Source: Amphiscolops sp. MND2022
Lineage: Eukaryota
DNA: 64,000 nt
Direction of reading: 5' to 3'
NCBI GenBank assembly: GCA_964187785.1
Contig: OZ076409.1
Span: 34,164,001-34,228,000, forward strand
The translations under genes were made by a program, and so were the position numbers. The notes under the pieces were generated by a model. It was not told the DNA's origin. It searched no databases and saw only the letters and a list, made by a program, of their open reading frames with translations. Of this stretch, positions 8,521 through 64,000 are shown piece by piece. The stretch's first letter is position 1, and each line of letters opens with the position of its first letter.

Positions 8521-8581
8521 GGGGTTGCACCCTATATCTATATATAGCAACAGCGTCAACGGGTGGGTGTTCATGTAGCCT

Positions 8582-8821
8582 TGTAGACCGTTTAATTGGA
8601 TCATGTTAAATAACATTACAGGTGAAACAACTCATATTGGGTTACATGTATAGCATGTGAAGAGAAAATGGTAAATTGACACAAGGGCCATAATACATGG
8701 CACTTCAAAATTTGCACTATTTATGGAAACCAGCTTCTCATTTGGGAAAGCTTCGGAGGAAAATGGAAAAAGGACTGAGAGTTTACCTCAGTTTCAAGGG
8801 TGAAAATCATCAAAATTTATG
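8582..8821 (-). repeat. Remnant of the 3' LTR of element B
   Basis: About 240-bp direct repeat of 20906-21145. A deletion joins it to the middle of ORF3. Confidence 0.85.
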
Positions 8822-8829
8822 GTAATATT

Positions 8830-9259
8830 GCCCTTTGTCTGCATCTGGAGGAGACAGTGGTGTATCTACCTGCGGGATTAGGTTGAGGCACAGATTTATC
8901 GGGCGGTTTCGCTTAACTTGTCGTCCGCCTTCAGGGGCCCATTGCCTCGAGACTAAAATGGTTTGGTGGAATGTTGGAAAGGGAGGCATCTTTGGTCTTT
9001 AGGGCTCGTTGGATTTATATGAGGCAGTAGAAGGAGCGGCAGGAATTGGAATTGGCTCAGACATTTGTGTTTCAACATATAGGTCCCTCATGGTCACTTC
9101 TTCCGACTCGTCCTCCGAGGAGGATAGGTAATCAGTGATAGAAGAAACATTTTTGCATTCCATAGCCTCGTCTTCATCATTGGATATGTAGATTATTCTG
9201 CCACCTGGGGTAGCTCCTTGAAAGTCCTCCGGGTACATTCGTTGGTTGAGGTTCTGCAT
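8830..9259 (-). pseudogene. Accessory sense ORF3 of element B (internal stop at 8999, C-terminal half deleted)
   Basis: IIYISND...PIPIP...AP...INLCLNLIPQVDTPLSPPDADKG aligns with IIYISSD...PIPIA...AP...VELCTTVLPVLESPLSPPDHERG of the 40872 ORF. Confidence 0.8.
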
Positions 9260-20695: not shown

Positions 20696-20905
20696 AAGAG
20701 ATTATTGCAAGAGGTAAGAGTTTAAATTGAGTTCTCAGGCTAGCAAACAAAGTTTTATTCCAATGGGTATTAACGAACTGATTGTGACTATCTCAAGGAA
20801 AATTGTGTTTTCGGGACTACAAGTCCCGGTTATTTATATTCAACACTGCATGACTTCCAAGATATATAGTGTCATCAATCTAACTTTACAACAAGAGATT
20901 TGTTT

Positions 20906-21704
20906 TGTAGGCCGTTTAATTGGATCATGTTAATAACATTACATGTGAAACAACTCGTATTGGGTTACATGTATAGCATGTGAAGAGAAAATAGTAAATT
21001 GACACAAGGGCCATGATACATGGCACTTCATAATTTGCACTATTTATGGAAACCAGCTTCTCGTTTGGGAAAGCTTCAGAGGAAAAGGGGAAAAGGACTG
21101 AAAGTTTACCTCAGTTTCAAGGGTGAACTACAACCAAAATTTATGCGCATCCGTAATAGCAATTTACTACAGGCCTTATGGGCCGCACAAGTTTACTAAT
21201 TGCATTTCTGCATAGTATATTGCATTTCAAAGTGGACTGGTAGTCCCGCTGCCATAGCACCGACAAGATGAATAATATAATTGCTGTACTAAACGGCGTT
21301 GTTCAACAAACATACTGCACTGTGATTGCTTGATATTCTCATGGACTGCTGGTCCAAGGCGACAAGCAAAGGAACATTTGAACACGTTTCCTTTGCCTGT
21401 ACGCTTTGGTGTCCAATTATTAACACAACTAATAACATATTGCACTTTTACATGTGTAAAGCAACGAAATACCAATCTAACATAAATAAATGGACTGAGT
21501 AGAAATAATTTTACATATGGTCCGGGTATTAAAACTAAACAACATCATAATTTGACATAAAAGTAGCGGATTCTAAGCAATAACTTCAAAGTTTGTTGAG
21601 AAATTAGTTTTAATTCAGGGGGAAAGTGCTGGGAAGGTCCCCATGACAGCTGTAGCTTATTGTGTAGAAATTTCCATCGCAGGCGGCAGCCCGCGACAGT
21701 CACA
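20906..21704 (-). repeat. 5' LTR of element B (inner boundary uncertain, may extend to 20783)
   Basis: Begins TGTGAC-TGTCGCGGGCTGCCGCCTGCGATGG on the minus strand and contains the repeat shared with 8582-8821. TATAAATA lies near 20831-20838 and an AGTCACA ends at 20783. Confidence 0.75.
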
Positions 21705-25578: not shown

Positions 25579-26900
25579 TGTAACTGTCGCAGGCTGCCGC
25601 CTGTGATGGCACTAAGATCACGACAACAGCGGAAGGGCAAGAGATCGCGACCGGAACCTTACCAATCTACTGAGGAGAAAACATTCAAAATGCAAACTTT
25701 CATATTGTTCCGTTAATTACACTTGTTAATGTTGCTGACTCCATTTATATATATATATATATATGTTTTGCTAGTATTAGTCTGTTAGAGCCAACAACCA
25801 AAAGGCTCAAATGATGTGTAGTTATTTGCAAATTTGGAAACGCAGTACAACAATGCATTTGCAATAATAAATAGAAGCAGCTAACGAGCGTAAAGGAAAC
25901 GAGTTCAAGTAAACGTCACTCCAATTCCGGGGACGTCACTTGAGCTTACTACAATTAGCCAATCACGTGCTGTAATTCTTGCTGTACTATTGTTGTATTT
26001 GTTAATTGGCCGGTTAAGGCCACCTGACGAAATTCCACTCTCATTGCTCACTACTTTGGTCAAACGGCCGGTTCCGGCCGTGAAGCAATAATGAAAAGGA
26101 ACTAACTTATTACATCTGTACTTCATTAGTAATAATACAATTGTTCTTTCATGTTATTTAAATGTTCATTGTTGATAATATGAAGCTTTGTTTGGTATTT
26201 GGCCGAGTAAGGCCCATTGAACTAATATATATTGTTTCAACTGGTACTCTGGTCAAATGGCCGATTGTGGCCATTTCATGCATATTTGTGTTTTGTTGTT
26301 CAGTTAACCAGATATTAACCCGGAACTAGCATAAGTTCATCTCCGAAGCAAATGAAGGTGCTTATGGTATTATATTATCTACGTGATCCAAGCATATGTA
26401 AAATAGACAAATAAGGCCATTTTCCTTCACTTCCCTATTGTGCTGTCTGTACTTACGGATTTAAGCCTATTCCGGTTTCAACATGAAATATATTTTCATG
26501 AATAGTAGATTGATACCACAGCCCTTATGTGCGGTTATACATTCCATTCTCAGTGTAATATATAATAAATCTTGTGTCGGCACGTGCCTCCACCTCACTT
26601 TGCGTGAGGTATGTAAACAAAGGTATTTGTTGACACTTTGATATGCATGCCTTAATCGGCAGTTCGTTTGAAGCTACTATTTTGACTACATGACCCATAA
26701 CTGCCATTCCCTAGATGTCCCCGAAGATATGTGAATATCAGGGTTTTCATCATGGAGCTAATGATCATATGATACTACCAACCTAACTAGTTATGTAAGG
26801 AATGTGATTGTCATTCCCTAAAAGGTATAAATAGTGTTATCCCGTTGGGGAAATCATTAATTCCTTTCATTTTGCTCTAGTTAAGTTTAATCTACAAACG
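25579..26900 (+). repeat. 5' LTR/leader of element C (inner boundary not determinable)
   Basis: Its start is repeated at 41572. TATAAATA at 26826-26833 lies about 130 nt before the gag ATG. Confidence 0.65.
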
Positions 26901-26954
26901 GCACCGCTGTTATTTCCGTATTGATCAATATATTGTTAATTCGGAATCGTTTCT

Positions 26955-28676
26955 ATGCCTACTACTAGAAAACAGAAAAAGGCAAGAAAGTCAAGAGAAG
27001 CAGAAATGCTATCTGACTTTGAGAATTGGGATATTATGCTCGGAGGAAATCACTTTGATAGCAATGAGAGAAATGAAAGTGTGAATAGTAATCAGGCCGG
27101 CAGGCCAGAAAGCTTATTTGGAGGTGAATTTGGAGATGAGAATGAGAATGAGTTCCCAAACCCGGGAAATAATGGACCGAGTCCAAATACCGAATTAGGC
27201 CATAATTCAATCAGAGAGTGTTCAAGTGTTGAAATCAATAGATTGTCGAGTGAGTTAAATTCCCGTATATCTCGAGAGATGGATGAAATGATGAATAGCG
27301 TCAGTGTTCAGATTCAAAGGGCCATAAATGAGGCAATCAGTAGCCAAATTTTGCCTCAAATCCAAAATGCAGTTATGGCCGGGTCGGGACAATTGACCAA
27401 AGAGAGATGGAACGTTCCGGCCGAGAGACCGGAAGGATATTCCGAAATACTGCAAAACTTAGAACCTAGGAACAATTCTAAGAGTAAACAGACCAACGAC
27501 CGTCCCAAAGACGGATTCACAAGCACGAATTCTCGTGCTTACGACATGGTGACAGGAGAAAACGAATCTCCAATCGAAGTTCCTGAGTTTCTCACGGGAC
27601 GAATACCATCCACCAGTCATCTCAACAGATCAAATGATGACCTTCCCCTGCTCGACACGACGATCCCAGCACAAGAGAGAATTGCTACGGCTGCCGACTC
27701 CGATCCCATCACCCGACTGGCAGACGTCTTGACCACAATGCAAAATAGACCGACAGCCCAACAACTCACTATACGCCCAGTCAATTCAAACACAATGACT
27801 TTTGATGGCAAGAGTGAAAAATTCGAGCTGTTTGAGGACCTGTTCCACACGATGATCAAGATGCAACCGGAAATGACGGAACAGATGAAAATAAATCACT
27901 TCCACTCACTGCTGAGGAAGAATGCTCTCCAAACCTTCCGGAACATCAGCTCGAGCAATAGACAGACTTTAGAGGACGTATTGGTAATATTCAGACGAAA
28001 ATACGTCAAACCCGAATCACAGGCGACTGCCAAACATAAATGGCACCGTCTAGTCTTCGATCCCAACACGATGAAACTGCCAGATTTCCTTGAAGAATTA
28101 AATCAAGGGGCAGAAAAAGCATTCGGGGATCACGCGCAGAAAATGATTGACAGTTTGCTCTACGCAAAACTGCCACCAAAACTGAAGCGGTCTGTAAACA
28201 TAGCCAGACTCGAAAACGGCTCTTATGACGAAATAGTTGCTCATTTAGAGAGAGAGTTAGAACTAAATGCCCTCGAGGAATCAGACGATCTACCAATGGC
28301 CACAATGACCTCCTCGACAACAAAACCCAAGACTCCTCTAACTACTGGGCAAATGTCTGATATCACTTGCAACTATTGCAAGGAGAAGGGCCATTTGGTC
28401 AAAGACTGTGAAAAATTGAAGAAGAAAAAGGAAAAAGATGCCCAACAAGGCAAACAAACTCAGAAAAAGACGTATCCGGAGTGTGGCACTTGTGGTAAAA
28501 AGAACCACCCGGAAGAAAGATGTTGGCAAGGTGCTGGTGCGCATTTCAAACCCAAACGCACCAGACCAGATGACGCTAATGACGGTAAACCCAATTCAAA
28601 GGCACAGAAACCACAAAACAAATCAACATCTTCCAACTCACAGGCCTCATCTTCCAATGATGAGTCAAAAAACTAA
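26955..28676 (+). CDS. gag: Gag of element C (573 aa)
   Basis: Open ORF with capsid-like FDGKSEKFELFEDLF region and two CCHC knuckles (CNYCKEKGHLVKDC, CGTCGKKNHPEERC). Confidence 0.95.
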   Translation: MPTTRKQKKARKSREAEMLSDFENWDIMLGGNHFDSNERNESVNSNQAGRPESLFGGEFGDENENEFPNPGNNGPSPNTELGHNSIRECSSVEINRLSSELNSRISREMDEMMNSVSVQIQRAINEAISSQILPQIQNAVMAGSGQLTKERWNVPAERPEGYSEILQNLEPRNNSKSKQTNDRPKDGFTSTNSRAYDMVTGENESPIEVPEFLTGRIPSTSHLNRSNDDLPLLDTTIPAQERIATAADSDPITRLADVLTTMQNRPTAQQLTIRPVNSNTMTFDGKSEKFELFEDLFHTMIKMQPEMTEQMKINHFHSLLRKNALQTFRNISSSNRQTLEDVLVIFRRKYVKPESQATAKHKWHRLVFDPNTMKLPDFLEELNQGAEKAFGDHAQKMIDSLLYAKLPPKLKRSVNIARLENGSYDEIVAHLERELELNALEESDDLPMATMTSSTTKPKTPLTTGQMSDITCNYCKEKGHLVKDCEKLKKKKEKDAQQGKQTQKKTYPECGTCGKKNHPEERCWQGAGAHFKPKRTRPDDANDGKPNSKAQKPQNKSTSSNSQASSSNDESKN

Positions 28677-31148
28677 CTTCGCCACGACTCCAATACAATC
28701 AACTAATATCCGTCCGTCAATACATCAGGTCGGATCCTCCAACAAAAACTTTTCATCAATATACACAACAATTGATGGGCTATCCCTCTGTTGTCTGGCA
28801 GCAACAGATGGAAAAAGCTACCATCATCACCTACAATAACACCCATTTATTCCAGAAACCAATTCCTGTTTGGGACCCTGATTATACTACTACCTTCACT
28901 ACCCGATTCAGGCCTATTCCCCTGGTTGACAATTACAACCCTACCTACATAGATCCAGACTACGGCAGAGACCCCTATTGGGACACAGAAATCTACAACC
29001 AGGAACAACTACAATTCCAATATGTCTTAGACGACATCGAGCACTATAATAGAACGGTCCACGAGAACCCTCCAATCACCCACAATAAAAAGACCAGAGC
29101 ACTAGTTGAAAACTGGCAAATGAATGATGGCACCAACCATCCAGTGTTCCCAAACCCATTAGGGACCGAGACCCATGAAGACGTTGCTCAACCAATACCA
29201 CAATCACTATTAGACGAGAAGCAGTTCCAGAATGTCTTAATCACCAGGGACGGTGAACCAGACTGTATACCACTGTCAACCAACATCAATCTCAAATGCA
29301 AAAAACGCATGTTGTACTTCCCCATGGACTTTGGGGAATTGACCATAGACGGACTTATTGACACTGGAGCGCTGTCCAGTGCAATTCCTGAAATGGACCT
29401 CCGGAAAATTCGACTTCTATCTCCACAATCTGTCATCCGGGAAGGTCCGCCTCCAAATTTCCAAATAATGGTTGCTAATGGGCAATTGGAAACTCCTAAG
29501 AGTACCATAGAGCTCAAATTTGAAGTTGGTGACATTGAGTTTCATGAGAGTTTTATAGTCATGGAACACCTGACAGGTCAAACCCGAATCACAGGCGACT
29601 GCCAAACATAAATGGCACCGTCTAGTCTTCGATCCCAACACGATGAAACTGCCAGATTTCCTTGAAGAATTAAATCAAGGGGCAGAAAAAGCATTCGGGG
29701 ATCACGCGCAGAAAATGATTGACAGTTTGCTCTACGCAAAACTGCCACCAAAACTGAAGCGGTCTGTAAACATGGCCAGACTCGAAAACGGCTCTTATGA
29801 CGAAATAGTTGCTCATTTAGAGAGAGAGTTAGAACTAAATGCCCTTGAGGAATCACACGACCTACCAATGGCCACAATGACCTCCTCGACAACAAAACCC
29901 AAGACTCCTCTAACTACTGGGCAAATGTCTGATATCACTTGCAACTATTGCAAGGAGAAGGGCCATTTGGTCAAAGACTGTGAAAAATTGAAGAAGAAAA
30001 AGGAAAAAGATGCCCAACAAGGCAAACAAACTCAGAAAAAGACGTATCCGGAGTGTGGCACTTGTGGTAAAAAGAACCACCCGGAAGAAAGATGTTGGCA
30101 AGGTGCTGGTGCGCATCTCAAACCCAAACGCACCAGACCAGATGACGCTAATGACGGTAAACCCAATTCAAAGGCGCAGAAACCACAAAACAAATCAACA
30201 TCTTCCAACTCACAGGCCTCATCTTCCAATGATGAGTCAAAAAACTAACTTCGCCACGACTCCAATACAATCAACTAATATCCGTCCGTCAATACATCAG
30301 GTCGGATCCTCCAACAAAAACTTTTCATCAATATACACAACAATTGATGGGCTATCCCTCTGTTGTCTGGCAGCAACAGATGGAAAAAGCTACCATCATC
30401 ACCTACAATAACACCCATTTATTCCAGAAACCAATTCCTGTTTGGGACCCTGATTATACTACTACCTTCACTACCCGATTCAGGCCTATTCCCCTGGTTG
30501 ACAATTACAACCCTACCTACATAGATCCAGACTACGGCAGAGACCCCTATTGGGACACAGAAATCTACAACCAGGAACAACTACAATTCCAATATGTCTT
30601 AGACGACATCGAGCACTATAATAGAACGGTCCACGAGAACCCTCCAATCACCCACAATAAAAAGACCAGAGCACTAGTTGAAAACTGGCAAATGAATGAT
30701 GGCACCAACCATCCAGTGTTCCCAAACCCATTAGGGACCGAGACCCATGAAGACGTTGCTCAACCAATACCACAATCACTATTAGACGAGAAGCAGTTCC
30801 AGAATGTCTTAATCACCAGGGACGGTGAACCAGACTGTATACCACTGTCAACCAACATCAATCTCAAATGCAAAAAACGCATGTTGTACTTCCCCATGGA
30901 CTTTGGGGAATTGACCATAGACGGACTTATTGACACTGGAGCGCTGTCCAGTGCAATTCCTGAAATGGACCTCCGGAAAATTCGACTTCTATCTCCACAA
31001 TCTGTCATCCGGGAAGGTCCGCCTCCAAATTTCCAAATAATGGTTGCTAATGGGCAATTGGAAACTCCTAAGAGTACCATAGAGCTCAAATTTGAAGTTG
31101 GTGACATTGAGTTTCATGAGATTTTTATAGTCATGGAACACCTGACAG
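28005..31148 (+). repeat. 1572-bp tandem duplication (gag 3' half to protease)
   Basis: 28005-29576 is repeated at 29577-31148, with GTC microhomology at the junction and at least 7 substitutions. Confidence 0.95.
28667..28673 (+). promoter_or_regulatory. -1 ribosomal frameshift heptamer A AAA AAC (second copy at 30239-30245)
   Basis: Directly precedes the gag TAA. The -1 frame (KKLTSPRLQYNQLISVRQY...) is open into pol. Confidence 0.88.
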
Positions 31149-34100
31149 GTCCAATTATCGGCCTAATGTTCCTTCAACGAAATCATACAGTCCTGGACAT
31201 GAGACAAGGAATACTGAACTTCCCGTTCTTCTCAATGCAGCTCAAAACAGCTGACCATAAATACTCAAATGTCTTAGAACCAATTCTCAATCCCATTGAG
31301 ATAACCATTCCGCCAAATGATAGAGTCCTAATTAGGACCAATTCCCTACTGTACCCTGAGAATGCTGTCACTGGAATTTTACAACCGAGCGACCTTCTAC
31401 ATGAAGAAGGCGACATCACATTCTGCCCAGCCTTGGTCACTCTGAATGACGGCAATATATCGATACCAGTGAGCAACTTCACAGACCACCCTTATAAACT
31501 CAAAAAGGGACTACATATTGCCAATTTCTCTGTCATGACGCCAGAACAAATGAAGTATGTCAAACCGGTAGACCCGGCATCAACCTGGCACCTTTTGCAG
31601 AATGACCAGGAGCAAGCAGCCCATTATGTCAGCAGTCTCATCAAAACCAATAGAAATCCACAAAACTCCGAAAATTATTGGTTCCCAACTCCAGAAAACC
31701 CTGGAAATCCTGAGGAACACACACCCATACAAAAACAAATCCTAAGCGAGTTACAGGCCTTACAGGACCTGGAGACACTCGACCCCACCACAGACGCAGA
31801 ATCGCGTGCAAAATTCTTAGAAAACTTTGACTGGAAAGATTCCACCCTTACTCCTGAAGAGAAGGAGAAAATTGAGGAATTGTTAGTGGAATTCCATGAC
31901 ATCTTTGCACGACACCGATTTGATATAGGCATGAACGAGGAATTCAAAGTGAAACTGACACCTAAGGACGATTCCCCAGCCTATAGTCAAAGCCTTCCAG
32001 CTCCTATCAATCTGAAGGAGGACATCCTAGTCGAATTAGTCATGTTGCACAAATATGGCATAATAACCACACTGCCGTTCTCAAAGTATGCAAGCCCAAT
32101 ATTCGCCCAAAAGAAACCAAATGGGAAGCTACGACTTTTGGTTGACTTGAGAAAAATCAATAACCTCATCTCGGATGATTATAAAAACAATAATCACCCT
32201 GTTAGCACCCTGGTTGATGCTGCCCAACACTTGGCAGGCAAAAAACTGTTCTGTAAATTAGACTGTTCGCAGGCATATCACTGCCTACCAATGGCCGACC
32301 AACGCTCAATCGAAATGTTGGCTTTCAATTTTGCCAGTCGTACATTAGCGTACAGACGCTTGGCACAAGGCCTTAGTCGGTCACTATCCGCATTCTCGAG
32401 TTTCATGAGGGAATACCTCGACAAAGTCATTAAAGCGGATCAGTGCGCCCAGTATGTGGACGATATCGGCATCGCAGCCAATGATGTTGACCACCTCATA
32501 ATGAACCTGAGAGCAACATTCAAATGCATTCAGGAAGCAGGCCTTAAGTTGACAATGCACAAATGTCACTTTGGTGCAAAAGAATTGATTTTCTCGGACG
32601 GACTATTACCCCACAAGGCGTCAAACCCCAGAAACAGAACGTGCAAAACTTTCTGGAAAAGACCAAATTCCCAAAGTCGAAAAAGGCTTTGCAGCGCTAC
32701 TTGGGATTCTTGAACTACTACAGGAATTATGTCCCAAGACTCTCCGAACGCCTTGCTCCATTCTACAAGATGCTCAAAAGTGACGAAAAGGTCCTAGTAT
32801 CGAAAGAATTAGTCCAACAATTCGAAGAAATCAAAAAAGCACTCGACAAATGTTGCGATTTAGCCCTACAACAGCCTATCCCGAACAAACAAATCGCACT
32901 AATGACTGATGCAAGTTTTGGTGCAGCTGGATATGCGGTCTTAAAAGAAGACGATCCAAACCAGAAATTCACATCTCTCCGAAAACCCTACGCACCGGTG
33001 GCCTATGGATCAAAAACCTTCACCCCAGCCCAGATCAAAATGTCAGTATATGCCAAGGAATTTCTGGCAATTTACTTTGCATTCAAAGAATTTGGACATA
33101 TATTCTGGGGTGCGCCCAAACCGGTCATTATCCTTACCGACAACAAAGCCACTACGAGATTTTTCCAAACGAAAATAATACCCCCAGCCCTGTGGAATGC
33201 ATGCGATTATGTGATTCAATTCAATTTTGTCATAGCACATATCCCGGGAGCACAGAACACAGCAGCTGACTATTTGTCCCGATTGGAGGCAGATCCGAAG
33301 GATAAATTAGTCATGAAAATCCGTGAAGACGTGCAAACTTTACCCATTGAGATAAATGTTCAATCTGCGGGGGTATCACAGGAAGAACAAATATTCTATA
33401 CGAATGATGATGACGAGACAGAGGAACAGTATTGGGCAAGAAAAGAAGCAATCAGGAAAAATCCAATGACTGATGAGCCCACTGTTACCATAGAAACTCT
33501 GTCAACCAATCTGGTCAAACAACAACCAGACATCCAAGTCCGATTAAAGAAAACAAACCAGATAATCATCGAGCAGTCCAAAGATGCAGTATTGCAACAA
33601 TTGAAGGCAAAGCTCCTTCATGAAGACTATTCAGAAAACATACTGCAACAGGATGCCCGATATAGACACTATGCAAATAATCTGGAACGAATTGTACTCA
33701 AGGACGAAATCCTGACGAGGCAATATTTTGATGAAACAGGGAATGTTAAATACCATCAAATTTTGCTCCCGCAACACCTACTTCGGGAATTGCTCCACTC
33801 CCTTCACGGGACAGCGCATAAACATCCCGGGATTTCAAAAATGTTGCAGGAAATCAGACAAAGGTATTACTACCCTAGCATGGCTAAACACGTCAAAAAG
33901 TGGGTAGAAGGGTGTGAACAATGTGCCAGAGACAAGAGAGTCCCTAACGCAACGATCACACCTGAGCTGCTCAACTTGCCCGAATGGGACCTTGGACCTG
34001 AAGACGCCATGCAGATTGACCTATTGCCGAATCTTCCCCCAAGTGGAGGGTATGAAAATGTCCTAACGGCAATTGATGTTTTCTCCAGATATTTATTCGC

Positions 34101-35448
34101 TTATCCCCTTACAGACGCATCAGCGATCAATGTGGCAAAAGCGCTCATTGACATAATGACCAAGCATGCATATCTGCCAACGACTCTTATTACTGATAAG
34201 GGTACTGCATTCACTTCTACGATTATTGCGGAGGTTACGCAAATTTTGGGCATTACACTCAAATGTGCAACGACAAAGCACCCGCAAACAATCGGGAAAT
34301 TAGAGCGGACCCATGCCTCATTAAAGACAAATCTCAAAATGGCATGTGGGGAATACCGCCGACAATGGCATAAATATTTGCCATTAGCAGTACTTAATCA
34401 TAATACGAGTTATCATGCCAGTATTGGTTGTGAGCCAACGAGAGTATTCCATGGCAGAATTCCCTATAACATTCTGGATCACAAGCTTGGAAATAATCCA
34501 AACGAAAAGATCAACCCTACAACCGAATTTGCAGAAGAAATCCAAAACCGGACAAAAATCCTAATTGACAAAACGAAGCAGAACATTATGCAGTCGTACA
34601 TCAAGTACAAAGAATATTACGACGGCAAAGCAAAAGCTGCTCCATTGAAGGAGAATGACTACTGTTTCGTCTTACAGCCGAAAGCGAATCATCAAGGATC
34701 AAAAATTCCATTCCGCGATTACCGTTGGGTTGGACCATTTGTAGTCCAAAAGGTTTTGCCAAATGAAAACTACATAGTACGAAGGATCAATACGAACAAA
34801 ACTCAAATTTTGCATCGCATTCGCCTTAAAAGGTTTATTCCCAATCAACCGCTTGAGGACAATTTCCGAGAACAACGTCTGCAGCCAGACGAAGAAATTG
34901 TCATTCCGCAAGACGACCTATACGTCATAGCGTGGGAAACAGATTTTGGAGAGCAGCTAGTTACACGAGACAGCGAGACTATTCCGACTAGCGTGCCGAA
35001 TGGCGAACAGCCGAACACGGCGGAAACGAATGCAAATGACGGAGACGAGACCGAAGCGGATTACATAATCACGCGAGAAGAATTAAACAACGACAACGCG
35101 GCACACAGCCGGAATAAACGCTTAGATGATGACGTCACTGAAAGAAATAAAGCTACTGCAGTGACAGAAAATACCAAATCTGATTGGCCGAATCCGGCCG
35201 TTTCCCCAAAAAACCAAGAAAATTCTTTGCCGAGTACGGCAGGTGGACCGGAAAATGATGAAATTTTTTCAGAAAGAAATTCAATGAATGAAAACGATGC
35301 ACAAAACTCTCCCAAAAGGGGGGATGATATTATCGTGCCCGAAATATCTGAAAATGATGCTAGAAATGAAAGTCTGAGCCCTAGAGGAGGGAAATATAAC
35401 CTCAGGCCTAACCCTAACCCAAACTACTCAGAAGACTTTAGATACTAA
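30239..35448 (+). CDS. pol: Pol of element C (PR, dUTPase-like spacer, RT, RNase H, integrase), one frameshift near 32583
   Basis: LIDTGA; YVDD; TDASFGAAG; H-H-C-C; IDLL...IDVFSRY...TDKGTAF...GKLERTH; WVGPF. The 1-nt loss in an A run may be a mutation or a sequencing error. Confidence 0.95.
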
Positions 35449-35673: not shown

Positions 35674-38600
35674 TTAGTCTTTAGAGGACCCTTGAACGGC
35701 TTTCTTGGATGCAGACGAAATTGTAGAACTGCTACTACCTGCTCGTTTCCTCTGCTTCTTGGAAGGCACCTTTACAGCTGAATCATCAGGGATGGACGAG
35801 GCGGTATCCTTTTCTATCCGGACAGAACGAGTAGAAGGAACAGCAGTAACGGCCTTATAGGAAGTGAGAAGACTCTTGTAGATCTTAGACCTACCAAACT
35901 CATCCACAAGGGTCCAAGGATCATAGTCAGCAGGGAAAGCAGAACGCTCGAAAGAGGAACTGAGAACTGAGAACTTCTCTAAATTGTCATCCGAGCAGCA
36001 ATGAGAAATGGAATTGGGCACACAGGAAAGGTAACTCTGGCAAGGCACCACTAGATCGGCAAAACGGCCCTGACACCCCGTTGTGTCAACACTCCCGAAC
36101 AGTACTGGGGGATATTGGGGGCTAACACTAGTCAGACACAAGCAGCAGAGTTTGAACAGATAGAACAGGTGCTCATGAGTTTGGAAAAACTCAAGCCCCA
36201 TTAAAAAGTCTATAAGATCGACGGAATTCTCCATTAGATCGAAATCTGGAGGATAGTTGACCCGGAGGTAGTCCAACAGAGCCAGATATTCGTCTCGACA
36301 ACTGTTCTCGTTGGCACTAGTGACCCATGATCGAAGCTGGAAAGTAGAATATAGCACATCGAAGTGCCGGAGCCCGACCTCAGAAGGCCTTTTGAAAAGC
36401 ACGAAGGGATCAAAAGCAGCCAACCCCTTTATCACTTCAGAGCTCAGACCAGCTTGACTAAGGACTTGCTTGACTAGATACTGAATGAATTGCAACGCCT
36501 CTTTGACAAAGCTGCTGGTCGTCTCTGCAACCGTCTTCTCGATAGCAGCCTTCTCCGATTTCTTGTTCAGGTGTGTGACTTCTGCACTCTGTTTACTAGC
36601 TGTAGCTATCCGGTTTGTGAGACGGTGCCGGATAAGGAAGTCTTCCTCACTCATGAATTTGCCCTCGCTCACCTTAAACCCGAGAAGGAGGAACCACGAG
36701 TTCTCGAGGGGAATAGTTTCTGGCAAATAACATCGGGCGCACAGTTTTGAAACAAAGCGGCAAACCTCCCCACAGAGGAAGAACGAAGCATCACGGCGAC
36801 CCCGCAGATTGATGGCGAAACTGGTAACGTCTGAAATACAACAGTCGTGATTATGAGAGGAATAGGATATACAAACGAGACAATGTTGATAGTGATTCAA
36901 CAACTCAAGGAATTAAATTATCAGAACGATGTCTTAGTGCACTGACGTGAAATGAAACCGTATACTCACAATCGCCAATTATACGTTGGAAGAATTCCAA
37001 TTTAGCAACGAAGAAGAAGTCACAGATGATGGACCACTCGAAGCTTTGGACCTGATTGTGGACTCCTTGCATTCCTTGGTGAGGGGTGTGCGTAGTCAAG
37101 TACTGTCTGATTGCCTTCCAATTCTTCACAAGTTCTCGGCAAAGACTGGGGAGGCTTGGCAAATCTAATTTGCAGGTGTCGATGGCCTTAAATGAACCAA
37201 ATTGTCTCTCAAATGCACCTACCTTCAAACCTCTAACTACATGAGTGAACTTAATATACTTACTCTTCCCAGATCAGGAGATTCCAGAACCCAGTCCTCA
37301 CCAGTAGCAGCTCCCAATGAAACGATCAGGCACTTTAGGACAGAGAAGAAGTCGATCCGTCCAAATACGCTGTAGGTGGGCTTGTGCATCATCTTCTGAA
37401 GCTGCAGCTGCTCAAAACGAAAGCAACTCTGCACTGCTCGGGGAAAGAACTCATTGTGATCTATGGTTTGGATCAGCTCTACAGGACATCCTGAACAGGC
37501 GACGATATCGGCTTTGGTTGAAACCACAGATAGTAGTCTGGATATCGAACCCAAGTCTCCAGTCAGATCAGCGGAGGGAAGCCCACTTCGGCACACAAAG
37601 ACGCGACAAAGAGAATCGCCTTTCCAGAACTTGATGGACATGAGCCTATTCACGCCCACATTCTCAAATTCGATAGCGAAGCATTGGGTGGTAGCAATTT
37701 GCTCTGCTAATTCACTCATGGCACAATTGAAAATGTGTTGGAAGACGGCCTAAAGAAGAAAAAGACAATTATGAAATGTGTAGGGAATCTATACCCTCCC
37801 TGAGTAAATGTTAGCCTGAAAGGGAACTTACCGAGATCCGTTCTTCCCCCCAATCAAAGTCGCAATATCTAGTTTGATAGTTCGTCAGAGATCCTATCTG
37901 AGCCCACAGTCTGCGGAGTACTCCAAGATCACCGTGGGTTTGCACGAAGTCTCCAACGAGGTGTATTTGTGTCTTGACCCTCGATGCAGGAGTGACGAGT
38001 GTGGTTGACGTCCCTTTCACGAAGTCATCATAGAATGGGAAGCGTTCTCCGATGTCTATTAGTTCGACGTGTATAAATTTGGGGAGTTCTTTCGCCAGCT
38101 CAATCTTAGTGAGGATCTTGCCGTTCCGCCCTCTGACCCGATGCTGCACTTTCCCAGTCACTGGATCAACGCTTTTGAGGTGCTCATAGCGCAACCTTTG
38201 ATCACGCCTGAGGTGTTTTTCGGTCCTGTGGTGACGCAGAATCTCCAGTGTGCCCTTAGTTTTTACAGAAATATTCTTCTTACATATATGGCACCACACC
38301 ATATAAGGATTATGAAGGGGATCAGCTGGCCCGGAGATGAACGATCGGGTCCAGCCAATTTTGGAGAAGAATTCCTCCTTCATTGGAATGCCCCGTGTGT
38401 GGCCGCGCCGTTTCTTCTTGGGCAATTTGCTAGAGCTCGAAGCTAGAGGCTGTGCTGGGGCCGTCTGGGTGCGTAATTCAGAGAGCGTGGCATCGAGACT
38501 GGATTGATCGGTGGATTCAAAACCTGCTTGGGTAGGGTCAGCTCGAGAAGGTGGAACGCGGCTGAAAGGTTCCTTGAAAGCCTGTGAGATGAGTGCCATC

Positions 38601-39836
38601 TCGCCAGAACTGTCTGTATCATTGAAAGACTCTAACCCTCTACTCTCTTGGCCAGCACTGGATCCTTCAGAGGTGTCAGTCCCTGATCCAGAACAGTATT
38701 CAGCCCGCGAACTATCTTCCGAATCACTTTGCAGCCCTGGGCCGGGAGTTTGAGCCCTTGGCCGGATCTTGAAGTGGTCAGTTCGGGCACTGGAAGTGAC
38801 GGGAGCCCCTCTAACCGCTCCGATTACCATCTGCTCCATGGTGGAGTAGGACATTTTCAAGGTCTCGTCTGTAAGGACCCTCAGAAGATGATAGATTTGT
38901 GGCTCCGTGAACGCCACAGTTCTATGACCAAGCGGGAAGGTGATAGTACTGGCATCATCATCGAAATACTGTTTCAAAATGGCCCTACTACGGCCAGAAA
39001 GCTCCCTGATCTTGGGGTCCTGAGCTGCTGAAGTGGAAGGACGCATGGGATCAGGCATCGCAGCGAAAGTATCAGTTGACGACCCTTCTACTGCTGTGTC
39101 TGCTACATTACCTATTGGAAGGTAGGCATACAATTGAGGAGCACTAGCCTGACTGGATGTGTCGCCGGCTTCTTCAGTTCCAGTCTCATCGCCCAACCAC
39201 CTGACTTTTGGTGTTCCTGTTGGCAGCTTGGGGACATCACATAGGGAAGAGCTTTCGTCCGTTTCAATCTGGAGAAATGAAGCTGCGGACATTTCGGCAG
39301 GAGTCACGTTAGTGGGCAACAATTCCGGTAATATAGTCCTCGAGGAAGGAGCAATCGTTAGCCCAGTCTCTAACTGAGTCAAATTGAGCTCGTCGGTTTC
39401 ACCGGCTACGCCTGAAGTTGGGGTACTAGTACGAAAGACCGGTGCAGTAACCCGTGCTTCGACCCCCGGAAGAAGGACCCTCAGGTATACCTCTCTCAGT
39501 CTCTTGTTCTCTTCTCTCAGAGTTCTCCGCAGTATGTCCCTCTGATTGCTGTTGGGCCTGTTCAAGGAGCTGGAGCTTTTCGTCGGCATAAGATGTTACA
39601 TCAACGTTGCTGTCTGTGCTGCTGGGAGACCTTGGTGGCCTGATTGGAGGAAAAGGAGGAGGAGACAATTGTGGTCTTCGGACGGTAGAGGAAGTACCCA
39701 CAGAAACAATCGTTTGAGTATGTTGGTCGGGAATGTCCGCTGCAGAGTTAGTTTGTGTTTGCAGTTCGTCTCCTGGCTGGTTTGCTAAGCAAAAGGAGAT
39801 GAAATTTGGCGGTGAGCTTCCTTGAAAAAAATCCAT
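35674..39836 (-). CDS. Antisense spliced gene of element C: BED-type zinc finger plus inactive hAT-transposase-like protein (about 1205 aa from ATG 39589)
   Basis: Exons 39589-37832, 37749-37264, 37186-36970 and 36830-35674 join in frame through GTAAGT/GTGAGT...AG introns. The conserved start (MDFFQG..FISFCL, 39836) is in another frame. The hAT call rests on motif pattern. Confidence 0.85.
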
Positions 39837-40871
39837 TTTACCGCATTAGAAAACTTCCGGAAGTGTTTGAAAATCTGAACGAAACGTGTTATCACGCGTT
39901 TACTAATGGAAACAGGAAGCATGTTGTGAACGGATTTAACTCTGATCAAGTTAAATTTTAGTTCGGAATAAAAACAAACCAACCTTCAGATGAAGACAAC
40001 CTGGGACTGAATTGGATGTGGGAACGAGTCCTTGTCCGGCTGTAGAAGGTGATGGATGTGGCCGAAACCGGCTGGAGAAGGGGGATCAAGGGTTGCTCTG
40101 GGATGAAGAATCGGCTAAGAAGTGTCGTGTGCGGGGAAATAAGTATCAGTCGAGAAGAGACAAATGGAAGATAATCAGAATTAAAATGGAATTGAAATTG
40201 GGTAGAAGAATTGAAGAAATTGGAAAGTTGGAGTTCGTGGTTGAAGATTATTACCAGACTAATATTATGGATTATCTACATATTTATTCTGTACATGGAG
40301 TCTGCCAGCGAAGTGTACAATGGACTTTGTTATTTACAGCTTATTTAGTTAAAGGGCCGGTTATGGCCGTTTGCCCTGTTTTGTTTCGCCGTTTTGTCAA
40401 GTTACCCTTAGTTAGAATTTTCGCCATCTTGGATTATTTAGATTTATTATTTTCGCCATTTTTATTATTTAATTTTACAGTTTATCGAAGCTTAACGCTG
40501 ATTGGTTGAAGCCATTTTGAAAGAATTCCGCGTCGCATGTCGTTAATTGCTATCAGGCAAACTGTTAATTACCCACTTGAAACGGGTGAAGATAATATTT
40601 ACGACTCAAGCGTCATTAACACCTCTCAGGGTGATGGTGCTGATGGGGGGTAAACACTGAGCTATCAAAGGATGCCGACTACTTATAAAATTCCATTCAG
40701 AGATATTTACGTCGGATCAGGGTAATTCACCGGTAACTCAACCACCGAATATGAATTGCCGGGAAAAGGCCCGACTTGGCCAAATTCTTGAGTTGGTGAA
40801 TTCATTCCACTTTGAAACTTCAAGCAAACTAGTCGACTCCCCTGCTCAGCAAGATTGCGAAAAAACTAATA

Positions 40872-41616
40872 ATGCAAAGATATAACTTAACCAAGAAGCT
40901 CTTCGACTTTGAAGAAGAGGATTCAGAAAAATCAGCAAATTCGATAATCTACATATCCAGCGACAGTGAGAATGAGGCTTCAAGCGATTGGGACTCAGAC
41001 TGGTCTACTGATACGGAGGCTATAATAGACAGGATCGAACGGGAAGTTAAAGCGGCACCAATTCCTATTGCCGGACGGGGGATGACAATAGAAAGCTCAG
41101 ATGACGAAATGGCGGCAGGACCCAGCTACATTCAGTCTGTTCCGCCTTCTACCCCGAAATTGGGATTTGAGTACTTCAACAGAGAAATGTGTCTAGCGCC
41201 GTCCAAAAGGCAGAAGAAGACGAGGGTTGAGCTCTGCACTACTGTTTTGCCTGTTTTGGAATCTCCATTATCTCCTCCCGACCACGAGAGGGGACCAAGT
41301 ATTGATACCCCTCCTGTACAGTCGACCTCAGGGACCTTCTACGCCTCGTACCATGTGCAGAATATCAAGCCTTACCAGGACGTCAGCGAAAGTCTACACA
41401 CGGGCTGTATGGTATGTGGTAAATCGAGAGAGCAGATAAAAGAGGAAAAGATCAACTGGTATATGGAGAGATCGACGCCCAAGAGTGAACCAGCCTATAT
41501 CACCGCATTGCGACGAGAAGCATACTCTAATGGCTTAAATGCAGGTAGTCTACTTTTCCTATCACCCGCAGTGTCGCAGGCTGCCGCCTGTGATGGCACT
41601 AAGATCACGACAACAG
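40872..41616 (+). CDS. Accessory sense ORF3 of element C, unknown function; predicted 262 aa ending inside the LTR
   Basis: Open into the gap. The 5' LTR copy supplies ...TTAEGQEIATGTLPIY* (stop at 25671-25673). Has an acidic N-terminus and CMVC, and a homolog in element B. Confidence 0.85.
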
Positions 41617-41816
41617 NNNNNNNNNNNNNNNNNNNNNNNNNNNNNNNNNNNNNNNNNNNNNNNNNNNNNNNNNNNNNNNNNNNNNNNNNNNNNNNNNNNN
41701 NNNNNNNNNNNNNNNNNNNNNNNNNNNNNNNNNNNNNNNNNNNNNNNNNNNNNNNNNNNNNNNNNNNNNNNNNNNNNNNNNNNNNNNNNNNNNNNNNNNN
41801 NNNNNNNNNNNNNNNN
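41617..41816. other. Assembly gap (200 N)
   Basis: Run of N starting 45 nt into the 3' LTR. Confidence 1.
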
Positions 41817-43480
41817 TCGTGATCATTTGAACTTAGATGATTTGACTTGTCTGATAGAGGCATAATTATATTACAATTTTTTCAATAATATTGATTTAAT
41901 TTTTCTAAATGTTTTTGCTGAATTTAGATGATCGAACCTAAAGGATTTTTTAAACTCAGAATTACAAACTATACAATACTGCATCTTTTTATTATAACTT
42001 TATTGATTTGATAGCGATATAATTTTCAAATTTATTTTACTTTTTTGATTTCAAAACTGATGTTACAAATGAGTAAAATAATTATTTTAAAAAATCTGTT
42101 TGATGTTGTTGTATCAAGTTTCTTTGATTCTGATTGTGAAGCTGTATGCGAAGCTATGTGTGAAGCTGCTCGCGAAGCTGTGCGATAATTTTCATACATT
42201 TTCACAAATCGGTGATATTCTTTTTCATCTATTTGATTATCTTTTAGACTAGTATTGAATAGTTGTCTAAAGGCATCAAGAGTCTTCTGAATAATAGCGC
42301 ACTTAAGTTTATAATTTTGCTCCTTTTTCTTCAGATAACTGGAACAAATTTTAAGAAGAATACCAGTTGCACAACCAACTCCAGCAGGTGATTGGAACAA
42401 CTATAATGCCCACACCAGTATTACTTAGTGTAACGGATGCTGAAGTTGTTCCTATTATTATAAGACCATCTGTCGAGTTAATTAGATTATTTATTAGCTT
42501 GTATTTGATGTATTTTTCCTTATTTTCATTTTCATCCAATTCATAATCTTTCATCATCATCATGATCTTTTGAATTGAAATATTGAAACTAGATACTTTT
42601 GCTAATTGCTTATTTATCATTGATTCTACAACATCAATGTCATCGGCTGCAGAGGGGGTCAGGGAAGGATAGAGTTTTTGTTCCGTTTATTAATTATATA
42701 AAACAAAATTTAATTCCGTTGGTGTTAATTTCATTCTGTGTTTCATTTCAACTATATTTATAAAGGATTTTTTTTTCAATGACTTCAAAATACTTTCTCT
42801 GGTAGAATATTCCAGAACAGACAGATAATACTCACCATCGGAAGTAGGTATTGTTTTTCCATACTATTTAAATAAGTATGTTTCTCTGAAAGTTAGATAA
42901 TTTTCAAAAGCTTGATCTTTATTGGGAAAAGAATCGAATAAACTTTTGTCATAAAGTAGTTGAATTATGTTGTTAGTTATAGTAATTTTATTTTCATCTA
43001 GGCTGTTAGGAATATTTCACCTTCTTTTGAAATCATTCCTGCTTGACCCACTGATTTTAGAAAATTCACGTTGCGGACTATTAACATTTTAAAACAAGTC
43101 TTGTGTAAGATTGGTAGTACTTCATTTATTAAAGCAGATCTTTGTTCGGTGAAAGATTTTTTCATATTTTATTCTAACTTATTTATGGTTTTTGAAAGTT
43201 CTGAAAACTGGCAATAAATATCAATGATTAACTTTGAGTTCAATAAAACTTTTCGAAATTCCTGTGGGTCTAGTATTTGGTCTAGTAGTTTTTTATCTAT
43301 TAATTTCTCTGGATTTTCTGATTAGTTTTCTGATAGGTTTCCTAATTCATTTTCTAGTTCATTTTCAAAATCTTCTTTTAATTTGGAATGGGTTATTTGG
43401 GCTAATATTTCTTGCCCTTCAGAATAACCAAACTTATGAAGAGACATTTATCATGAAGAAAAAGTTGAAAGGGTGTCGAT
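41817..43480 (-). pseudogene. AT-rich remnant of compact ORFs resembling Polinton/adintovirus accessory genes
   Basis: Frameshifted ORF ~42690-42032 with LYPSLTPSA, a Gly/Thr-rich hydrophobic segment and DNQIDEKEY, followed by zinc-finger-like MQYCIVCNSEFKKSFRFDHLNS. No hallmark Polinton gene is present. Confidence 0.45.
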
Positions 43481-44705
43481 AAAGTCGAGGAAAAAATAAT
43501 TAAGGGTGATTTCTCACCTGGTGTGTATTAATGTTGTTAACAACTTTGTTCTCCTACAGGGATGAGAAAGTATTGAGTGAAATTTCTCCTGAATTGACAC
43601 CTGTTTATTGCTGTGTTTACTGCTTTTCTTAGGAACACGCAAAGCTGCTCCTGTCAAATGTGTGAATACTCTACAACTTTTGTTCCTGTCGTCTTTCTCT
43701 ACAATGGTTTCCCATGTAATAAAAATGCAAAACCCATAGGCATGCTCATTATGATATGCGAATTAGTATATGCATTGGCATACCTATGGTAAACTCAAAG
43801 CCCATCGGGAGTCCGTTCCACTAAGAGTTTCCACAGCAGGGATCATCCTTTTTAAGAACTGTGCCATTGGTGATTATTCTCCCATAGCATCTAAAATATT
43901 ACAAAGACTGGGGGACGTTGGTTAGAAGTGAACCCCAAACACTCCGGCCGAAGTCTTAACTTTAGTCAATGCTATAACCACTAAGCTATGGGAGACGAAT
44001 CAATGTTTGTTTTAGTTATATAAAAATAACACCAAAGGCACGTCAGAAAAAATGAAAAAAAGTCGTCACACCAAAAGACACGCTTTGTGACGCATTGTGG
44101 ACAATGAGAGCGTTCAGCGTCTTTCATAGAAGTTGGACCCTAAAAGTAAAGACCAAATAATAATTTTTGTGAGGTACCTTGTTCTATAGTACTTCTATAA
44201 TCTAGTTGGTTTAAAAATCTTAGGATTCCTTGAGAAGTACCATTTAGAGGCCAATCATTTAGTGTCGTACAAGAGTTTAACGATCTCCACAAAAATTTGT
44301 AGATAGTGAAGGGAGCTGAGAGAATGCACCAGAACTCCAAAACATGCCTTCATTGCACAAGAAGATTAATTTTCAAGCCCTTCTTCTATAAATTCTTCTA
44401 TCGAAGACTGTTCGAAAGTATCAAGTTTCAGAATTTCCACAACACAATAAAGCTGGGGAATTTGTTGTTGAATTTGATTGGACTTTCACGATTCATGTTC
44501 AAATATCAAAAGCGGTCCGACTATGAAATTTGATTCGTTTATCGTATGTAATGTTTGAGAATCGGCTTTGTACAGTGTATGACGAAGGATTGAATTGGGT
44601 TTGTTTCCACTGCATATATAACTTGAAAACCAGAAACTAACACGGTTACCATAAACCAACAAGTTTATACGTAAATCTGAATTGAGTCTGAACTAGAATA
44701 TTTTC

Positions 44706-63700: not shown

Positions 63701-64000
63701 CGTGTCTGGCAAACCATTTCTGCAAAAGCAACCTAGACGTGGTCACTGCATCGTAATCCTCATGGCTGCAGGGTACAGCCTCCGCAAACTTGGAGAAATG
63801 GTCAATTATTACCAATATGCCGGTGTTATTGTTATCGGAGGGGCATATTTTCAGATGGTCATACTGGACCAACTCATTGAAATACCCACTTTGGATATTT
63901 TTCAAGTGAAACCGAACGTCACCCGGCCTGTCACGTACTTGCTGGCACGTGAGGCACTGACTCACGTACTGACCAACACTGCGGCGAATACCTGGCCAGG
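60717..64000 (-). CDS. pol: 3' part of Ty3/Gypsy pol (element D): integrase with about 780-aa extension including tandem macrodomain-like folds
   Basis: WPGIRR...CLTC, YDHL, IDHFSKF, QSDNAPN, QGLVERQNRTL, WRGPH. The frame is open to the window edge. Confidence 0.93.
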   Translation of the reverse strand, partial: WPGIRRSVGQYVSQCLTCQQVRDRPGDVRFHLKNIQSGYFNELVQYDHLKICPSDNNNTGILVIIDHFSKFAEAVPCSHEDYDAVTTSRLLLQKWFARHGTPTRMQSDNAPNLTAEVSNEFMRASQVTKVTSTAGHPRTQGLVERQNRTLLTLLRVFCSRRMRDWDQHLDEVMGAYNSTRHATTGFSPYMLTRGTEKAIPLTYLYPEFAARSFESHGAYVEHILARQQEIHDLVRRNTHQAQQRQKLKYDRAIRANAYNVGDPVWVFCRYVPQKGSPKLMRAWRGPHKVVHVLQDGRVYILDSGQKVHFERLKPHHGGPTEFVALPSGSGEVVVVMDPEPEHSAEEIRDDCSQPSCREEEPLSEASDVSLPSRRRHWMDTRLRTRMRAGGSRLHYQQFDYSSSDPERSRSDDLLSDARDHSQAEPPALFEASMPPDEQPRSFEPADELPFLSESEVFPEVPQSQDIPVATGEAEVSLAGTSAPLLTNPTLTDVPISTPQLPNGTSNLQNTETRDTELSNTKEPTARNNVPSTRGRGRSRAALSRCSTRATNSRSQNVSVRAQRTPSRRGRPRGRPPRRPRGHTISSRQTARENDTQPSITSDSDSDAPTAHLTSDVDQGATQVNPHYGLRRNRVPRYRCGTCGFRDCTCVMALNKSPTIPLGPVKAPVDPKPQPFIHNGKLLVSRVVIRAEKTYTGLERERIFPVDVVLEELSKSKIAEEPCPRFKEWTSDLRGLEFTLAVTVPPVTPNIVFGPFNYEREPIQMVRCITADLLSDKYGITCQPGEVYRPAQYWWLLVTAPHAHSLVQPDSLRSCLESLRTVVTEELILCFHIVDLYRGKLRFRWWLELIITLFASFPRIRLLDDWTHSFTEPVTIHTALGTLDSWSTANVDNQSLSPSVWQDLSAIRGQNHVDLADEKGPGRQIVFPGALRPNLVDYIIYDQTDFLQVQGHVAICCPADLNTNSAALRYILRECGSDKIFQLRPTVGEVLTIPSSLSFMDNQVIHLMITRPSQRSPQITDDFVLCLEHLKASLLSNETPDIHFPIVDPERPLRSLDNFYHSVMDVFAGTDITVFLHDRVYVSIDSIEQFPGIT

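Follow-up and report, generated by a model that had tools for sequence, protein, structure and literature searches.

A conserved accessory reading frame that enters the 3' LTR of an env-less Ty3/Gypsy element

Background

What kind of gene, if any, is a long sense-strand reading frame that leaves the internal region of a retrotransposon and continues into its 3' long terminal repeat (LTR)? The question is raised by a window of 64,000 nt from Amphiscolops sp. MND2022 (the whole stretch of DNA analysed here), which contains several decayed LTR retroelements. A preliminary description, prepared from the letters of the sequence, had regarded the frame as the third accessory gene of one of them, with a C-terminus encoded inside the LTR and a layout recalling nef, bel and sag of complex retroviruses.

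Accessory ORFs (aORFs) of LTR retrotransposons are known, with functions mostly lacking (PMC7264820), and, as a class, extra ORFs located after pol and before the 3' LTR have been described already (PMC7264820, PMC5408684). The plant elements Grande, RIRE2 and Retand and the fungal Boty carry conserved extra genes at this position, as does the element described here (PMC7264820). Coding inside U3 is also already known from nef and sag: HIV-1 nef and MMTV sag and rem are coded in or into the U3 of the 3' LTR, as is the present frame (PMC12789967). The hosts of nef, sag, tas and bet are retroviruses, whereas the host here is a Ty3/Gypsy retrotransposon without env.

Results and discussion

The host element

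The frame belongs to element C, which spans positions 25585 to at least 41616 on the plus strand and includes the following features.

25585..25673, plus strand: start of the 5' LTR of C, with a headless tail of the reading frame up to a stop
26955..28676, plus strand: gag of C, with a zinc knuckle
28664..35448, plus strand: pol of C, with protease, a weak dUTPase-like stretch, reverse transcriptase (RT), RNase H and integrase
35674-39845, minus strand: antisense ORFs of C
40872..41615, plus strand: accessory ORF, visible part (248 codons from the ATG at 40872 to the gap; about 262 expected)
41572..41616, plus strand: start of the 3' LTR of C, coding residues 234-248 including Cys240, cut by the gap
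41617..41816, no strand: assembly gap of 200 N, followed by sequence that is not LTR

The succession of gag and a pol ordered protease, RT, RNase H and integrase places element C in Ty3/Gypsy (Metaviridae-type), an assignment made by pol order, a polypurine tract (PPT) being usual in this group yet not a classifying trait. The pol gene is no longer intact, having undergone a tandem duplication of 1.57 kb and a change of frame within RT, and no env-like ORF was found between pol and the LTR. The gag sequences may resemble repeats of acoel flatworms. The dUTPase-like stretch lies at about 31290-31540, between protease and RT (Pfam E 0.11), and is a feature shared, if weakly, with the Gypsy-type LTR elements of bdelloid rotifers, which have a dUTPase domain and diverse ORF3s as separate transcription units (PMC5408684).

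Two other parts of the window were also inspected. Beyond the gap, 41817-43500 holds AT-rich small-ORF fragments unrelated to the LTR, for which Pfam was uninformative and which may belong to a Polinton-type or other DNA element. The minus strand of 60717-63998 carries the integrase of a different element with a very long C-terminal extension (a 1093-aa open frame, cut by the window end), in which Pfam matched nothing beyond the integrase.

The frame crosses the LTR boundary

An ORF of this length arises in one of 2000 Markov resamples of 39850-41616. Its 3' end overlaps a direct terminal repeat that begins with TG: 41572-41616 and 25585-25629 are identical at 45/45 bp, these 45 bp being the checkable part of the 3' LTR of C, with the rest inside the gap. 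The first LTR base is base 2 of ORF codon 234. In the 5' LTR copy the same frame ends at the stop 25671-25673, predicting 262 residues, which is the length of a natural homolog, P0001, with 96% identity. The terminal GTLPIY-stop that had been reported for C was accordingly seen in the 5' copy only, because the 3' copy falls in the gap, and the length of P0001 agrees with it.

The left boundary of the LTR is fixed by three unrelated flanks that precede a common TGTCGC, namely those of the 5' LTR of C, the 5' LTR of a second element, B, and the metagenome contig L001. Across the same LTR start, an unbroken homologous frame runs in two further and independent metagenome contigs, L002 and L003; these loci were retrieved with the LTR-start pattern, by which the LTR bases were selected and the upstream ORFs were not. 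Simple patterns revealed no tRNA primer-binding site, no terminal CA or terminal inverted repeat and no target-site duplication, the 3' end of C being inside the gap.

Two side observations concern the LTR ends. TATAAATA occurs only about 130-145 nt before gag in both C and B (within 25585-26955 and 20694-21698), so near to gag that the LTR may therefore reach almost to it. The 5' flanks of C (25580-25584) and B (21699-21703) both end in GTRAC, a possible target-site preference, while the flank of L001 differs.

Element B represents a related family on the minus strand, 67-74% identical to C across gag-pol, and retains part of the same arrangement.

20905..21698, minus strand: 5' LTR of B (length 794 bp or more), which opens with the TGTCGC seen in C and likewise contains the tail of the reading frame
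8810..9259, minus strand: decayed ORF homolog in B, N-terminal part only, with one in-frame stop and the junction deleted
8581..8821, minus strand: 3' LTR remnant of B, 93% identical to 20905-21145

In the 5' LTR of B the frame reads SRAAACDG and terminates in a stop, as first described. Element B has lost the 3' half of the ORF together with the first ~550 bp of the 3' LTR, and what is left of the ORF directly abuts the middle of that repeat. The statement that the frame crosses the boundary at the same codon in both families consequently stands for C (codon 234), with L002 and L003 also crossing, while for B, with its junction deleted, it is a deduction. The remnant matches the protein P0254 with 45% identity over 127 aa (E 5e-20) and the family HMM with 62 bits; the direct pairwise comparison of C with the first 85 residues of B is weak (E 0.016), and for this reason the homology of the ORF in B rests on the family.

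A widespread family under coding constraint

The clustered protein search recovered 166 family clusters among 679 candidates, with 1,764 member sequences in the 120 clusters listed out of these 166, while a profile search yielded 241 clusters among 5,217 and an unindexed search 217 representatives. All protein matches are ENA records, and full-length members extend to about 25% identity. The presumed accessory gene is hence clearly conserved in further copies, as 166 and 241 clusters attest. Among 354 retrieved proteins, 152 are 245-300 aa long, and 139 of these (near-copies included) have the LTR-start peptide within their last 50 residues, preceded by Val (130/139) or Leu (9/139), always one of the two because the LTR start demands an xTG codon. 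The other 13 either differ from the peptide at one residue (8) or carry other ends (5). Longer, fused forms numbered 0 in 7,998 scored, which is weak evidence, and in viral contigs neither the ORF nor the LTR pattern nor the RT had a match. A set of 44 genome-contig matches to a 19-nt pattern encoded no homolog and was discarded as chance.

Two alignments describe the conservation within the family. In A2, whose 11 distant rows were chosen by coverage and not by motif, Cys122, Cys179, Cys182, Glu206, Gly221 and S-Q-x-A-A-C-x-G are invariant in 22/22 rows, down to 26% identity. In A3, of 70 rows, Cys122 is present in 69, His161 in 67, and Cys179 and Cys182 in 69 each; 63/70 rows had been pre-selected for the LTR-start motif, and counts at residues 234-241 are therefore partly circular. 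Identity by codon position follows the order second > first > third (for first, second and third positions of C vs L002, 0.46/0.59/0.36 over 209 codons), which is mild coding evidence, since the alignments are protein-guided. The first ~20 bases of the LTR are fixed at all codon positions, including the third positions of the first 7 codons; these bases therefore serve DNA and protein together, and the conservation of SQAAAC is in part a DNA constraint. Beyond these codons the changes are synonymous or in-frame.

The fixed bases would also suit the view that there is no functional protein gene here, the frame being open by chance or through conserved LTR-end DNA. The decay of the copy in B agrees with such a view, as does the fact that full length with the usual C-terminus is found in only 32/60 members listed from four clusters. 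It is contradicted by the start, the stop and the scattered residues upstream of the LTR, which are kept across families at 25-30% identity, and by the LTR-coded tail, whose length changes stay in-frame (27-34 residues in 68/70 rows). The absence of a gene is thus already largely refuted and, in our estimation, scarcely credible.

The locus contains, in sum, a conserved sense-strand ORF of about 260 aa with its last ~29 codons inside the LTR start, which is neither env nor a member of a known family. As expected for an aORF, it is kept in most copies and across families and lies between pol and the 3' LTR, a position shown for C and B. The Ty3/Gypsy context is likewise that of C and B, L002 and L003 being too short and the ENA proteins carrying no context.

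Protein anatomy and predicted structure

Four parts of the encoded protein are of particular relevance.

40944..40964, plus strand: SIM-like motif IIYISSD in the acidic, Ser-rich, predicted disordered N-terminus
41235..41279, plus strand: conserved Cys122 (69/70 rows) and (D/E)(S/T)PxSPP motif ((D/E)(S/T)PxSP in 62/70 rows)
41406..41417, plus strand: CxxC (Cys179 and Cys182, each in 69/70 rows)
41427..41555, plus strand: hairpin of helices at residues 186-224; residues 193-228 are the predicted homodimer interface and show an AxxxGxxxG pattern

The acidic, Ser-rich N-terminus and the motifs PLSPP and CxxC of the preliminary description are all present in the window protein, and its SIM-like IIYIS-D is found as a pattern match. 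A SIM is defined by a hydrophobic core and a Ser/acid tail (PMC3174244); IIYISSDSE consists of a (V/I/L)(V/I/L)x(V/I/L) core followed by Ser and acidic residues, and the SIM pattern occurs in 44/70 rows. In its strict form the motif is found in 32/35 close and 12/35 distant rows, and a basic NLS-like cluster in 31/35 and 4/35, respectively. The SIMs of HSV-1 ICP0, HCMV IE2 and Daxx likewise have a hydrophobic core followed by Ser/acidic residues (PMC3174244); compared with ICP0 and IE2, the family protein has no RING finger and no homology, and the likeness to the SIMs described there consists of one short motif.

AlphaFold models the acidic N-terminus as disordered, places a helix at 44-61 and predicts the hairpin at 186-224 with confidence (pLDDT about 90); outside 180-225 the confidence is low (mean pLDDT 57, pTM 0.35 overall). 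The four conserved Cys and one His, with one Cys coded inside the LTR, could bind zinc. For residues 116-262 of P0001, prediction of a homodimer gave a score of 0.54, the best of three controls reaching 0.00; the runs agree in at least 60% of contacts, with a partner pLDDT of at least 49. This prediction did not use the alignment and included zinc, unlike the calibration, in which the 0.54 mark was reached by 21/30 microbial and 17/29 eukaryotic solved dimers and by 0/23 and 0/30 monomers, with 7/16 among animal dimers and 1/7 among eukaryotic dimers without an older solved relative. At the interface lie some of the best-conserved positions of the protein (R/K214 in 70/70 rows, A217 in 68, Y/F218 in 70, G221 in 66, G225 in 67). 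The family protein is accordingly predicted to form a homodimer via the helix hairpin.

The position of the ORF is that of env, and one could conceive of a non-env membrane or cell-to-cell spread factor, resembling FAST and sORF2 or a small env-like ORF3. Mild hydrophobicity is seen at residues ~215-233, where glycines are spaced much as in a glycine zipper, and 30/70 rows reach a Kyte-Doolittle mean of 1.3. A mean of 1.6 is reached in only 1/70 rows, the highest 19-residue mean of the window protein being 1.17, and the glycine spacing is explained by the predicted soluble dimer interface that these residues form. Neither a hydrophobic N-terminus nor a Met-Gly start is found in any of the 70 rows. 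The sORF2/FAST-like fusogens are 63-107 aa long (FAST to 200), with one transmembrane (TM) helix and often N-myristoylation (PMC11952523); at ~260 aa, the present protein far exceeds the 63-107 aa of sORF2, and it has TM-level hydropathy in a single row of 70. Since the family protein has no signal peptide, no C-terminal TM anchor (both judged from hydropathy) and no Met-Gly, it is not env, in agreement with the initial reading, and not sORF2/FAST-like, which renders a role in membranes or spread very unlikely.

Profile and structure searches, which had been proposed as a check, recovered the conserved family and matched no known family or fold. Pfam found 0 families for the window protein and 0 for L002, L003 and five further homologs; over 22 rows it gave weak single-member matches only, such as a Rad50 zinc hook at E 0.023 in 1/22, which was rejected. 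The PDB sequence profile returned a single match (E 9.5), and the best Atlas score, 0.86 for piggyBac-type acidic N-termini, was at lead level and was rejected. Foldseek found no match at E<=0.001 in BFVD or PDB, and the best VIA Z scores, 4.5 and 5.1, concern the generic helix hairpin alone; such results from predicted models do not show a new fold. With respect to Nef, Sag, Tas and Bet, no Pfam, PDB-sequence, Foldseek or VIA match was obtained with models of low confidence, and because of that low confidence the missing match does not exclude homology. The likeness to nef, bel and sag is one of layout; neither the sequence nor the fold searches turned up a similar viral protein.

A junction with few purines

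The PPT is a standard part of LTR elements (PMC7264820, PMC12789967), and its expected site in C is occupied by the ORF.

41547..41571, plus strand: expected PPT site; pyrimidine-rich coding sequence with a longest purine run of 2 nt

In the sequence before the 3' LTR (25 nt in C) the longest purine run is 2 in C, 7 in L002 and 5 in L003. A total of 105/139 proteins have x-Pro-Ala before the Val, and these codons allow at most 2 purines adjoining the TG. The 35 x-Pro-Ala-Val rows of A3 form one side of a branch with SH-aLRT 100 in a quick tree, and many x-Pro-Ala-Val clusters are large, with tens to over 100 members. As far as can be read from its codons, this clade is without a PPT at the LTR junction, by coding constraint, though highly amplified. 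Retroviruses, by comparison, retain the PPT before U3.

From this derives the proposal that the protein is a particle or reverse-transcription cofactor acting at the LTR end, for example in plus-strand priming or end processing where the PPT is weak or absent. The ORF has indeed overwritten the PPT position, and the x-Pro-Ala-Val proteins make up one branch (SH-aLRT 100%) with many large clusters. The protein also occurs, however, in lineages with a short purine run still in place, and is therefore older than the loss of the PPT; moreover, no nucleic-acid-binding or enzymatic signature is seen and the N-terminus is net acidic. We regard such a cofactor as quite unlikely.

An antisense gene and a candidate promoter upstream

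Upstream of the ORF, the antisense ORFs of C and a pair of conserved motifs were examined.

35674..39836, minus strand: accessory gene in antisense, probably a single spliced gene encoding a BED/Spin-doc-like zinc finger; it stands head-to-head to the ORF
10486-14488, plus strand: counterpart of the antisense gene in B
40499..40580, plus strand: conserved motif pair upstream of the ORF, made up of a reverse CCAAT box followed by CCACTTGA; may be an internal promoter

The ORF and the antisense gene point apart across about 1,035 bp. In C and B, the antisense tblastx blocks correspond and splice donors occur at matching places (37831/12294, 37263/12845 and 36969/13221), from which it follows that the antisense ORFs are probably exons of one gene. 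In C, in-phase acceptors exist for 2/3 introns, and none was found for the second at the thresholds used. With one spliced antisense gene, the ORF would be the second accessory gene rather than the third; the earlier count probably took exons of one gene for two genes. The BED/Spin-doc-like finger has Atlas scores of 0.87-0.90, a lead only, and the antisense zinc-finger gene is possibly derived from a hAT-type transposase. A palindromic CTTCCGGAAG(T), which we take to be an ETS-like site, is conserved just upstream of the antisense start in both C (39854-39864) and B (10459-10469).

CCACTTGA is the sole 8-mer common to all four upstream regions (C, B, L002 and L003), and it always follows the reverse CCAAT box by 52-94 nt; within the window it occurs only at these two places, in C and B. 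Among null sets, 12/1000 shared any 8-mer, a generous null, as the motif had been seen before testing. The simplest reading that the motif pair suggests is an internal promoter. Neither this probable promoter nor the missing PPT and the predicted dimer had been noted in the preliminary description. Internal promoters of this kind have precedents: foamy viruses use one for tas and bet (PMC12789967), and gene23 of Grande is driven by a promoter of its own, its product being nuclear (PMC7264820). At 19-62 nt before the ATG, C (40840-40871), B and L002 also contain a conserved word of the ATTGC(G/A)AA type and a pyrimidine tract with AG, a possible splice or trans-splice acceptor. A candidate splice donor is located at 26607, in the 5' leader of C.

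Comparison with other accessory genes

The antisense gene matches the aORF-3R layout (PMC7264820). The sense aORFs treated in the available text of that paper are env-like with TM segments, while the ORF described here has none and enters the LTR; nor does that text describe, for its aORFs, the head-to-head antisense-plus-sense pair or the LTR overlap seen here. No sequence link was found between the present ORF and the aORFs of Grande, RIRE2, Retand and Boty. Bdelloid ORF3s are GDSL esterases, DEDDy nucleases and coiled-coil or TM proteins, none of which was matched here, and the LTR overlap is a feature of the present ORF, the word 'overlap' being absent from the available text (PMC5408684). 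Drosophila MDG1-group sORF1 and sORF2 are likewise small accessory proteins of env-less Gypsy-type animal elements, of ~70-110 aa and mostly upstream of gag, sORF2 being a TM fusogen-like protein (PMC11952523); the present family protein differs in its ~260 aa, in being soluble-looking and in its location at the 3' LTR. In a largely open-access literature, repeat databases and supplements aside, no description of the protein family, the head-to-head pair or the PPT loss was found, and the repeat library in the supplement of some genome paper could already contain these elements.

A possible function

The reading that we prefer, tentatively and at somewhat less than an even chance, is that the protein is a dimeric nuclear transactivator or anti-silencing adaptor of the element. 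The ORF would serve an old and much amplified Ty3/Gypsy lineage as its dedicated accessory gene, with transcription starting in an internal, probably divergent promoter region common to the antisense gene and ending at the poly(A) site of the 3' LTR. Its product would dimerise with itself around a small core of Cys and His residues, which probably binds zinc, and extend two long arms, acidic and disordered, that carry a phospho-SIM-type motif. Acting in the nucleus, the dimer would regulate the transcription of the element itself, either as a transactivator or as an anti-silencing adaptor engaging SUMO-dependent repressors, in a mode that may be likened to that of foamy-virus Tas or herpesviral SIM-bearing regulators. 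The overlap puts the LTR end to double use, with its first ~20 bases fixed as DNA and also coding the conserved Cys-containing peptide. SUMO participates in small-RNA-guided silencing (10.1101/533091, PMC8131101). Against a nuclear regulator stand the distant rows, with the strict SIM in 12/35 and the basic NLS-like cluster in 4/35, and no DNA-binding fold was recognised in the family protein.

The 31/35 distant rows that miss the NLS-like cluster speak for a cytoplasmic adaptor of the Nef or Bet type, which would neutralise a post-transcriptional defence of the host (a restriction factor, for instance, or slicing by small RNAs) through short linear motifs on the disordered arm. Such an adaptor might well look like this protein, which is mostly disordered, keeps a number of short motifs and has a small core predicted to dimerise; the position of the ORF also matches that of nef (PMC12789967). 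A Met-Gly start is nevertheless found in 0/70 rows, and SIM-plus-acid motifs point to nuclear partners, so a cytoplasmic adaptor appears unlikely.

Returning to the preferred nuclear regulator, its arrangement may be compared with that of foamy viruses, where an internal promoter serves the 3' regulatory genes tas and bet, as we infer for the ORF here (PMC12789967). In its most far-reaching form, which we consider doubtful, the comparison would mean that an env-less animal Gypsy lineage independently reached the design of a complex retrovirus, with a divergent internal promoter, an antisense gene (spliced, and coding for a zinc finger) and a dimeric regulator that binds SUMO, has the position of Tas or Nef and contains an LTR-coded Cys, and that its most amplified clade gave up the PPT to the reading frame and adopted non-standard plus-strand priming.

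Conclusions

A heavily amplified clade without a PPT would run counter to a rule of LTR reverse transcription that holds almost universally, and its elements, we infer, would escape LTR-finding programs that require a PPT. The family lends itself to testing: its protein is short and soluble-looking, its motifs are defined, intact natural variants exist by the hundred, and there is a candidate promoter. If the proposed function is true, a SUMO-binding regulator coded by a retrotransposon would be a direct counter-move to SUMO-dependent silencing, and it might explain the high copy number of such elements.
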